Positions 11,680 through 11,720 of a stretch of DNA of 55,000 nt are shown here, in pieces. The position numbers were made by a program, and so were the translations under genes. The notes under the pieces were generated by a model, which saw only the letters and a program-made list of their open reading frames with translations, did not search any database and was not told the DNA's origin. This DNA comes from Escherichia coli. GTDB lineage: Bacteria; Pseudomonadota; Gammaproteobacteria; Enterobacterales; Enterobacteriaceae. The number at the start of each line of letters is the position of its first letter. Position 1 is the first letter of the stretch. The stretch lies in the NCBI RefSeq assembly GCF_003334355.1, contig NZ_QOWP01000026.1. The stretch is one strand, 5' to 3'.

Positions 11680-11720
11680 TAACTAATTGGCGTTGCAGTA
11701 CATGCAACGCCAATTAGTTA
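11680..11720. repeat. Perfect 18-bp-arm inverted repeat (taactaattggcgttgca-gtaca-tgcaacgccaattagtta)
   Basis: Read directly. The right arm overlaps the feaR stop codon; there is no U-run on either side, so it is not a canonical intrinsic terminator. Confidence 0.8.

Follow-up and report, generated by a model that had tools for sequence, protein, structure and literature searches.

A protective role for stem-loops at the 3' ends of Rho-dependent E. coli transcripts is an idea that reportedly goes back to work by Peters et al. in 2012. Natural quasipalindromes undergo template-switch mutation, as at the E. coli thyA hotspot, and the mechanism (quasipalindrome correction), in which switching within one strand lets a change in one arm be copied to the other, is reportedly described in work by Ripley and by the Lovett lab. 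Rho-dependent transcripts of E. coli end just past stable stem-loops that have neither a U-tract nor an upstream A-tract and that are followed by sequence with more C than G (Dar & Sorek, 2018, NAR 46:6797). Such ends are the product of PNPase/RNase II trimming after diffuse Rho termination further downstream (Dar & Sorek, 2018). According to a passage in Miura et al. (2018), which cites Lillo (2002) and Du (2013), inverted repeats of at least 8 bp are enriched right past E. coli stop codons, and only some of these are canonical terminators.

Here we describe a long inverted repeat between the convergent genes ydbL and feaR in a 55,000-nt stretch of E. coli DNA (contig NZ_QOWP01000026.1), the whole of which is referred to as the window. 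The window is K-12-like, and its coordinates equal those of MG1655 minus 1,434,660. The features of the junction are as follows.

11680-11720 (MG1655 1446340-1446380), both strands: the whole inverted repeat, two 18-nt arms and a 5-nt spacer
11680-11697: left arm, TAACTAATTGGCGTTGCA
11698-11702: spacer or loop, GTACA, which reads TGTAC (inverted) in strain H2
11703-11720: right arm, TGCAACGCCAATTAGTTA
11689, pairing with 11711: arm position 10 (paired with position 32), the sole internal pair that varies among alleles
11220-11546 (MG1655 1445880-1446206), plus strand: ydbL coding sequence, last gene of ydbH-ynbE-ydbL
11547-11679, plus strand: ydbL-side spacer, single-copy in E. coli
11718-12623, minus strand: feaR coding sequence (open reading frame and RefSeq annotation), for an AraC-family activator of tynA/feaB; its mRNA carries the hairpin from the stop codon on
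11718-11720, minus strand: feaR stop codon TAA, the outermost three nucleotides of the right arm
11841 (MG1655 1446501), plus strand: Rho termination region, antisense to feaR, 121 nt past the hairpin (Adams et al., 2021)

The two arms are 100% complementary (18 of 18 nt) and enclose a 5-nt loop, as a first-pass annotation of this DNA had reported. The same annotation called the element a perfect 41-bp palindrome, and this wording does not stand, as the 41-mer at 11680-11720, with its odd-length spacer, is not its own reverse complement. Strictly, it is an 18-bp inverted repeat with a spacer, which for brevity is called the palindrome below. Its stem is the longest perfect hairpin of the 55-kb window, where the runner-up has 13 bp. 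First-order Markov simulations (n = 100) returned a longest stem of 9.2 bp on average and 13 bp at most, and calculation predicts 6e-6 stems of 18 bp per window; the hairpin is far beyond chance. Folded as RNA with its flanks, the plus strand reaches -33.8 kcal/mol (z = -6.9) and the minus strand -29.1 kcal/mol (z = -5.1), while the 41-mer alone gives -27.6 and -26.7 kcal/mol for the two strands. As DNA, the palindrome has a folding energy of -21.3 kcal/mol (z = -9.8). Past a 2-nt bulge, the plus strand alone adds 5 more base pairs to the 18 perfect ones; the criterion for RNase III is about two helical turns (20-22 bp or more) of double-stranded RNA.

Each half of the left arm has its own composition, the lower 9 bp being A/T-rich and the upper 9 bp (GGCGUUGCA/UGCAACGCC) G/C-rich, as is the stem-loop of an intrinsic terminator. 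No T/U-run follows the stem on its 3' side on either strand, as the first-pass annotation had observed, and there is no A-tract. The tails past the stem are GCGGAAUUUA on the plus strand, with 3 U in 10 nt, and AAACAGAUAU on the minus strand, with 2 U in 10 nt. A simple scan for the terminator consensus did not call the hairpin at 11680-11720.

Open reading frame coordinates and RefSeq annotation agree in placing the palindrome between ydbL (plus strand) and feaR (minus strand), which converge across a 171-bp spacer, and in having it overlap the feaR stop codon; on both points the earlier description was accurate. A transcript from ydbL meets the hairpin after a 3' UTR of 133 nt. At the palindrome itself, RefSeq annotates nothing but the feaR coding sequence in the window and in K-12, and no repeat feature in K-12. 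A literature search for feaR named together with ydbL found nothing relevant. Read-through of the feaR UAA (11680-11722, minus strand) would add 12 codons before a second in-frame UAA, made up of the last two bases of the palindrome and the next A, and the palindrome ends carry stops in two frames (TAACTAA). The in-frame second UAA at the far palindrome end is probably a coincidence. A 19-codon open reading frame that spans the palindrome (11658-11717, plus strand) has no Shine-Dalgarno sequence and was dismissed.

Published data on Rho bear on the plus strand. Supplementary file 2 of Adams et al. (2021; PMC7815308) lists a Rho termination region at 1446501(+) with a score of 4.03 (p = 1.3e-5). 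Its upstream/downstream reads are 54/14 in untreated cells and 87/91 with bicyclomycin, counts that are low and come from coarse 800-nt windows (Adams et al., 2021). We recomputed the Rho score from these counts, which confirmed the order of the columns. Given the 87/91 reads with bicyclomycin, termination past ydbL is Rho-dependent, and no stop at the hairpin is detectable on the plus strand with Rho inhibited. Together with the missing U-run, this Rho-dependent termination downstream on the ydbL strand supports the earlier statement that the element is not a classical intrinsic terminator. No minus-strand Rho region is listed at the hairpin by Adams et al. (2021). The C/G ratio of the plus strand is 1.33 across the 121 nt downstream of the hairpin; that of the minus strand is 0.92 in the spacer and then 1.52 in ydbL antisense.

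The palindrome shares several properties with the protective stem-loops of Dar & Sorek (2018). It is stable, it has no U-tail or upstream A-tract, and a Rho termination region lies about 120 nt downstream on the plus strand; the downstream bias of C over G may be shared as well, being mild on the plus strand and mixed on the minus strand. Its position just past a stop codon or in a 3' UTR is also that of the described examples. It differs from them in its stem, which is 18 bp long and perfect whereas typical examples have terminator-like stems, and in that one symmetric palindrome would serve two convergent units and starts at the feaR stop itself.

Because the palindrome matches this class, RNA stability or processing is the best fit among the three functions that the first-pass annotation had proposed. 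On our analysis the chances are about even that the palindrome forms an RNA stem-loop which protects and defines the 3' ends of the convergent, Rho-terminated transcripts, and which itself causes no more than weak pausing or intrinsic termination. Transcription on both strands would yield a very stable stem-loop without a U-tract, placed at the 3' end of feaR mRNA (from the UAA) and 133 nt into the 3' UTR of ydbH-ynbE-ydbL. RNA polymerase would mostly read through this stem-loop, Rho would then terminate diffusely downstream, within the antisense of the convergent gene, and the 3'-5' exonucleases PNPase and RNase II would trim the transcript to the hairpin base, leaving a stable mRNA 3' end. 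Weak pausing or termination in both directions may occur as well, the lower stem being A/U-rich and the upper stem G/C-rich. We infer 3' ends at the hairpin base, exonucleases that stop there, and a benefit to the cell. On feaR mRNA that is being translated, however, the 5' arm would lie under any ribosome that terminates at the UAA, which would hinder formation of the hairpin.

The first-pass annotation had proposed 3'-end mapping as a check. No curated Term-seq 3' end is present in Adams et al. (2021) within MG1655 14462xx-14465xx, so that the check fails to place an end at the hairpin; the locus is weakly expressed in the media used there, and the missing end thus counts only weakly against a protective stem-loop. 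TERMITe, SMRT-Cappable-seq and the supplements of Miura et al. (2018) hold no entry for feaR, ydbL or these coordinates. If confirmed, the palindrome would be a clean, unusually long and perfectly symmetric U-less protective stem-loop common to two convergent Rho-terminated units, and it would explain defined 3' ends of the feaR and ydbH-ynbE-ydbL mRNAs in E. coli. Beyond annotation it matters little, being a tidy but unsurprising feature.

The 41-mer is present in 4196 of 5426 complete E. coli genomes, always at the ydbL/feaR locus, and no E. coli genome with a surviving feaR 3' end is without the palindrome. Each genome has one locus, and the "2 places" found per genome are the palindrome matching itself on both strands; the adjoining spacer is likewise single-copy. 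BLAST searches of plasmid and phage collections found no dispersed copies, the matches being mislabelled chromosome pieces with the same flanks. At a permissive E-value, Rfam returned only generic-hairpin matches to miRNA models, which are eukaryotic, with 15-23 bits against gathering scores of 96-211. The palindrome resembles REP/BIME elements in being an extragenic palindromic hairpin in a 3' UTR that is able to block exonucleases, and REPs are often near Rho termination sites. Unlike them it is single-copy, has no REP consensus and no K-12 repeat annotation, and is not G/C-rich throughout. With a single copy and no dispersed copies, it is therefore not a REP, a MITE or another dispersed element. 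A REP/BIME was ruled out by the one locus per genome and the lack of a K-12 repeat annotation, and a MITE or IS remnant by the single copy and the lack of a flanking direct repeat.

We surveyed feaR orthologues with a single genome for each species; of the five loci recovered, four were orthologous. The convergent arrangement of feaR and ydbL recurs in Pseudocitrobacter faecalis, P. vendiensis and a Pluralibacter MAG, where the two genes almost abut; at feaR/ydbL these three genomes have no hairpin, and their feaR stop is TGA. The palindrome is also missing from a divergent Escherichia lineage (L009; NZ_JAATUR010000011.1, labelled E. coli), in which a spacer of 79 nt with unrelated sequence separates the genes and feaR stops at TGA. 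The outgroup TGA occupies the same codon position as the TAA of E. coli feaR. Homology between L009 and the window reaches from feaR as far as 11722 and from ydbL as far as 11541, and no homology is detectable between the two spacers (local alignment score 16 against a shuffle mean of 15.1, with 109 of 300 shuffles scoring at least as high). A common CGTT.TCCCGATA motif had led us to suspect an insertion of about 145 bp in E. coli relative to the L009 spacer, which was dropped as the alignment is no better than shuffles. No spacer of the L009 type was found in complete E. coli genomes.

As the outgroups are without the palindrome and E. coli has it, it arose on the E. coli stem lineage. Judged from these genome sequences, it is fixed in E. 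coli wherever the feaR 3' end survives, and there it supplies the TAA stop. The conservation and copy-number check proposed by the first-pass annotation thus has a divided outcome: the element is single-copy and fixed within E. coli, but it is absent from the nearest other feaR-carrying lineages. Since the outgroups manage the same convergent pair without a hairpin and with hardly any spacer, the design of the locus does not require the element. The identity of L009 to the window is 94.7% over feaR-feaB and 86.6% over ydbH-ynbE-ydbL, with the jump at the ydbL/feaR spacer. This jump suggests that the two sides may have different histories, by recombination or by transfer of the catabolic block.

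Variation in the palindrome was assessed in 12 sequenced E. coli strains out of the 4196 matching genomes and in an unbiased metagenome scan anchored on the flanks only, which gave 120 contigs, all with a 41-nt interior. The combined sample holds only 6-7 alleles.

K-12 type, 41 metagenome contigs: reference, unchanged
A2 type, 36 metagenome contigs: TG>CA beside the loop
str144 type, 25 metagenome contigs: C-G at pair 10:32 and A18>T
40EC type, 14 metagenome contigs: G.G mismatch at pair 10:32
EC476 type, 3 metagenome contigs: A-T at pair 10:32 and T18
Singleton (L126), 1 metagenome contig: A2 type with C12>T
H2, 0 metagenome contigs and one complete genome: exact reverse complement of the 40EC G.G allele

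Pair 10:32 thus occurs as G-C, C-G, A-T and G.G, and as C.C in the inverted H2 allele. The other 15 internal pairs (30 arm positions) show no variation across the 120 metagenome contigs and 12 strains. The T18 and TG>CA alleles have a larger loop, of 7 or 9 nt, and every allele keeps the hairpin, with -20 to -27.6 kcal/mol. Segregating sites number 5 of 41 in the palindrome and 19 of 133 (14%) in the neighbouring spacer, so that the diversity of the palindrome is no lower. The G.G mismatch allele makes up about 12% of the sampled contigs. The two transitions of the A2 type are G.U wobbles on feaR-sense RNA and the C12>T of the singleton is a wobble on ydbL-sense RNA; these strand-specific signals conflict. 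Formal covariation is not significant (score 0.053 against 0.030, with 42 of 500 shuffles doing as well), and we therefore make no claim of proven RNA-level selection.

In H2 the palindrome is reverse-complemented while its flanks are unchanged, which we read as inversion of the palindrome in place. In strain TUM13770 (L006/L144) a 1,195-bp ISKpn26 element of the IS5 family lies inside the left arm, at the equivalent of 11683-11686, with a CTAA target duplication; the palindrome offers two YTAR targets of the CTAA kind, and this target preference accounts for the insertion. Truncations of feaR, of which at least three distinct junctions were seen, are confined to alleles of the C-G/A-T group. 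The deletion junction at about 11924 is common to the A-T allele and C-G alleles; the double change from C-G to A-T therefore most likely came after feaR had been truncated, and it is thus not creditable to feaR mRNA. With one more T, the centre of the palindrome (11694-11706, TGCA-GTACA-TGCA) would be a perfect palindrome without a spacer, TGCATGTACATGCA, and one more A would turn the T18 alleles into that sequence too. A centre that is one base short hints at an origin from a 42-bp loop-less palindrome, although its chance probability is about 0.25.

These alleles cut both ways for a protective stem-loop. The 15 unchanged internal pairs and the hairpin kept by all alleles would count for it; palindrome diversity that is not below that of the spacer, the G.G allele at about 12% and the non-significant covariation count against it. 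The same data are relevant to the strongest alternative, which we regard as rather unlikely overall: a selectively neutral DNA palindrome, born by inverted duplication or foldback in the E. coli ancestor, still young, with its symmetry kept by intra-strand template switching and its RNA effects incidental. Its absence from Pseudocitrobacter, Pluralibacter and the divergent Escherichia with the same gene pair fits such an origin, as does a site diversity equal to that of the flanking spacer, and the 0-2 or so mismatches per allele are about what neutral decay from a perfect ancestor predicts. The complementary double changes (G-C, C-G, A-T) and the exact H2 inversion are typical of DNA palindrome dynamics, the A-T change most likely arose after the destruction of feaR, given the junction at about 11924 common with C-G alleles, and the lack of significant covariation points the same way. 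Set against this, the 15 internal pairs are invariant in 120 contigs and 12 strains while 14% of spacer sites segregate, and the persistence of the G.G allele at about 12% speaks against rapid templated correction. The stop codon falls exactly at the boundary of the arm, and a transcribed hairpin of -27 kcal/mol blocks exonucleases whether selected or not, which makes "no effect" physically unlikely.

Like quasipalindromes with template-switch mutation, the palindrome has alleles that differ by complementary double changes at a single pair and one in which the central segment is inverted. Pair 10:32 is found as G-C, C-G and A-T, and H2 is the reverse complement of 40EC, as in a quasipalindrome allele series; unlike a quasipalindrome, the K-12 allele already has perfect arms. 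A protective stem-loop and a neutral origin are not mutually exclusive, as any transcribed hairpin of -27 kcal/mol impedes exonucleases, selected or not. With three Watson-Crick states at one pair, one mismatch and one in-place inversion, the allele series is a natural case in which to separate selection on RNA pairing from homogenisation of a DNA palindrome.

It is more doubtful that the palindrome is a weak, non-canonical bidirectional intrinsic terminator. In that case the G/C-rich upper 9 bp would form the stem, the A/U-rich lower arm (AAUUAGUUA on either strand) would stand in poorly for a U-tract, and each convergent gene would be insulated against the other. The next convergent junction of the window offers a comparison: feaB (ending at 14358) and tynA (ending at 14416) are separated by a 57-bp spacer that holds a textbook A6-stem-T6 bidirectional intrinsic terminator at 14377-14403, AAAAAACGGCACC-T-GGTGCCGTTTTTT. 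The palindrome mirrors its layout, being symmetric, A/T-rich in the outer and G/C-rich in the inner stem, and placed between convergent genes, where an insulator fits; the RNA-DNA hybrid past the upper stem would be A/U-only but for one G. The feaB/tynA terminator also shows what the ydbL/feaR hairpin is missing, namely a T/U-run. U occupies only 4 of the 9 nt past the upper stem, the first two being A, and 2-3 of the 10 nt past the full stem, and the consensus scan made no call. With Rho inhibited, downstream and upstream reads on the plus strand are 91 and 87, which is full read-through with no detectable Rho-independent stop. A ribosome at the feaR UAA would, moreover, occlude the 5' arm of such a terminator.

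The palindrome lies near the edge of a large variable block. In NGF1-type strains, 11610 is joined directly to 30415, with no flanking repeats at the junction. The block 11611-30414 (18.8 kb), which holds feaR, feaB, tynA and the paa cluster as far as paaY, is either cleanly present or cleanly absent in E. coli, and strains without it have a spacer reduced to 11547-11610. Its absence is probably a deletion, because the adjacency of ydbL and feaR is common to other genera. The palindrome was considered as the block edge and rejected, the junction being 70 bp away and without repeats. At least three independent deletions (at about 11924, 11956 and 11968; L028, L024 and L038) have removed the 5' part of feaR through paaX/paaY and kept the palindrome, and in about one quarter of the sampled palindrome-bearing genomes only a feaR remnant is annotated.

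Two more elaborate schemes have, taken together, a very slight chance of being right. In one, the arrival of the ribosome at the feaR UAA, which is the first base pair of the stem, would decide whether the hairpin forms and so tie FeaR translation to 3'-end protection or Rho access, with the second in-frame UAA placed exactly at the far palindrome end; in the other, a flipping, self-templating cruciform would seed rearrangements at the edge of the 18.8-kb block. The recombination-prone cruciform suggested by the first-pass annotation draws some support from the in-place inversion allele and the IS insertion in an arm, and nothing was found in support of the protein-binding site that it also suggested.

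A functional DNA site is highly improbable, be it an operator for a dimeric protein, a target of site-specific recombination, a cruciform target or an element that bounds the variable feaR-tynA-paa block: perfect symmetry, a position 70 bp inside the left edge of the 18.8-kb presence/absence block, and the in-place inversion and IS5-family insertion at the palindrome are in its favour, but the 18-bp arms are far longer than operators need and lie at gene 3' ends with no promoter nearby, the element is single-copy and the other block edge offers neither a partner site nor repeats in common with it, the block junction is 70 bp off the palindrome, the remaining deletions at the locus either are IS1-mediated or stop within feaR, the IS insertion is accounted for by the CTAA target preference, and plasmids and phages carry no dispersed copies. 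We know of no operator consensus that matches the palindrome, and NsrR, TyrR, TrpR, PaaX and FeaR give no convincing match. Just upstream of it, 11651-11678 (AAAATGCATAG) resembles AANATGCATTT, which we take to be the NsrR half-site consensus. The second half matches poorly, and the likeness is probably due to chance.

An IS1 hot spot spans the 3' ends of ydbL and feaR and the spacer between them. Strains AF56, 2018-11-1BCC and F404 (L021, L022 and L023) have three different IS1-bounded adjacent deletions, which reach ynbC or paaX, and H2 (L002) has an IS1 inside the feaR 3' end. The structural variants H120, H123 and H70 were considered as "empty site" alleles and set aside, as they are IS1-mediated adjacent deletions that are uninformative on the palindrome. 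Further strong hairpins were seen at gene ends elsewhere in the window. One at 30432-30464 has an 11-bp stem and a T-rich tail and begins 18 bp into the sequence to the right of the block junction, and another at 28786-28819 lies past an open reading frame ending at 28778 and has no T-tail. Those at 36813-36842 and 37869-37898 look like canonical terminators.
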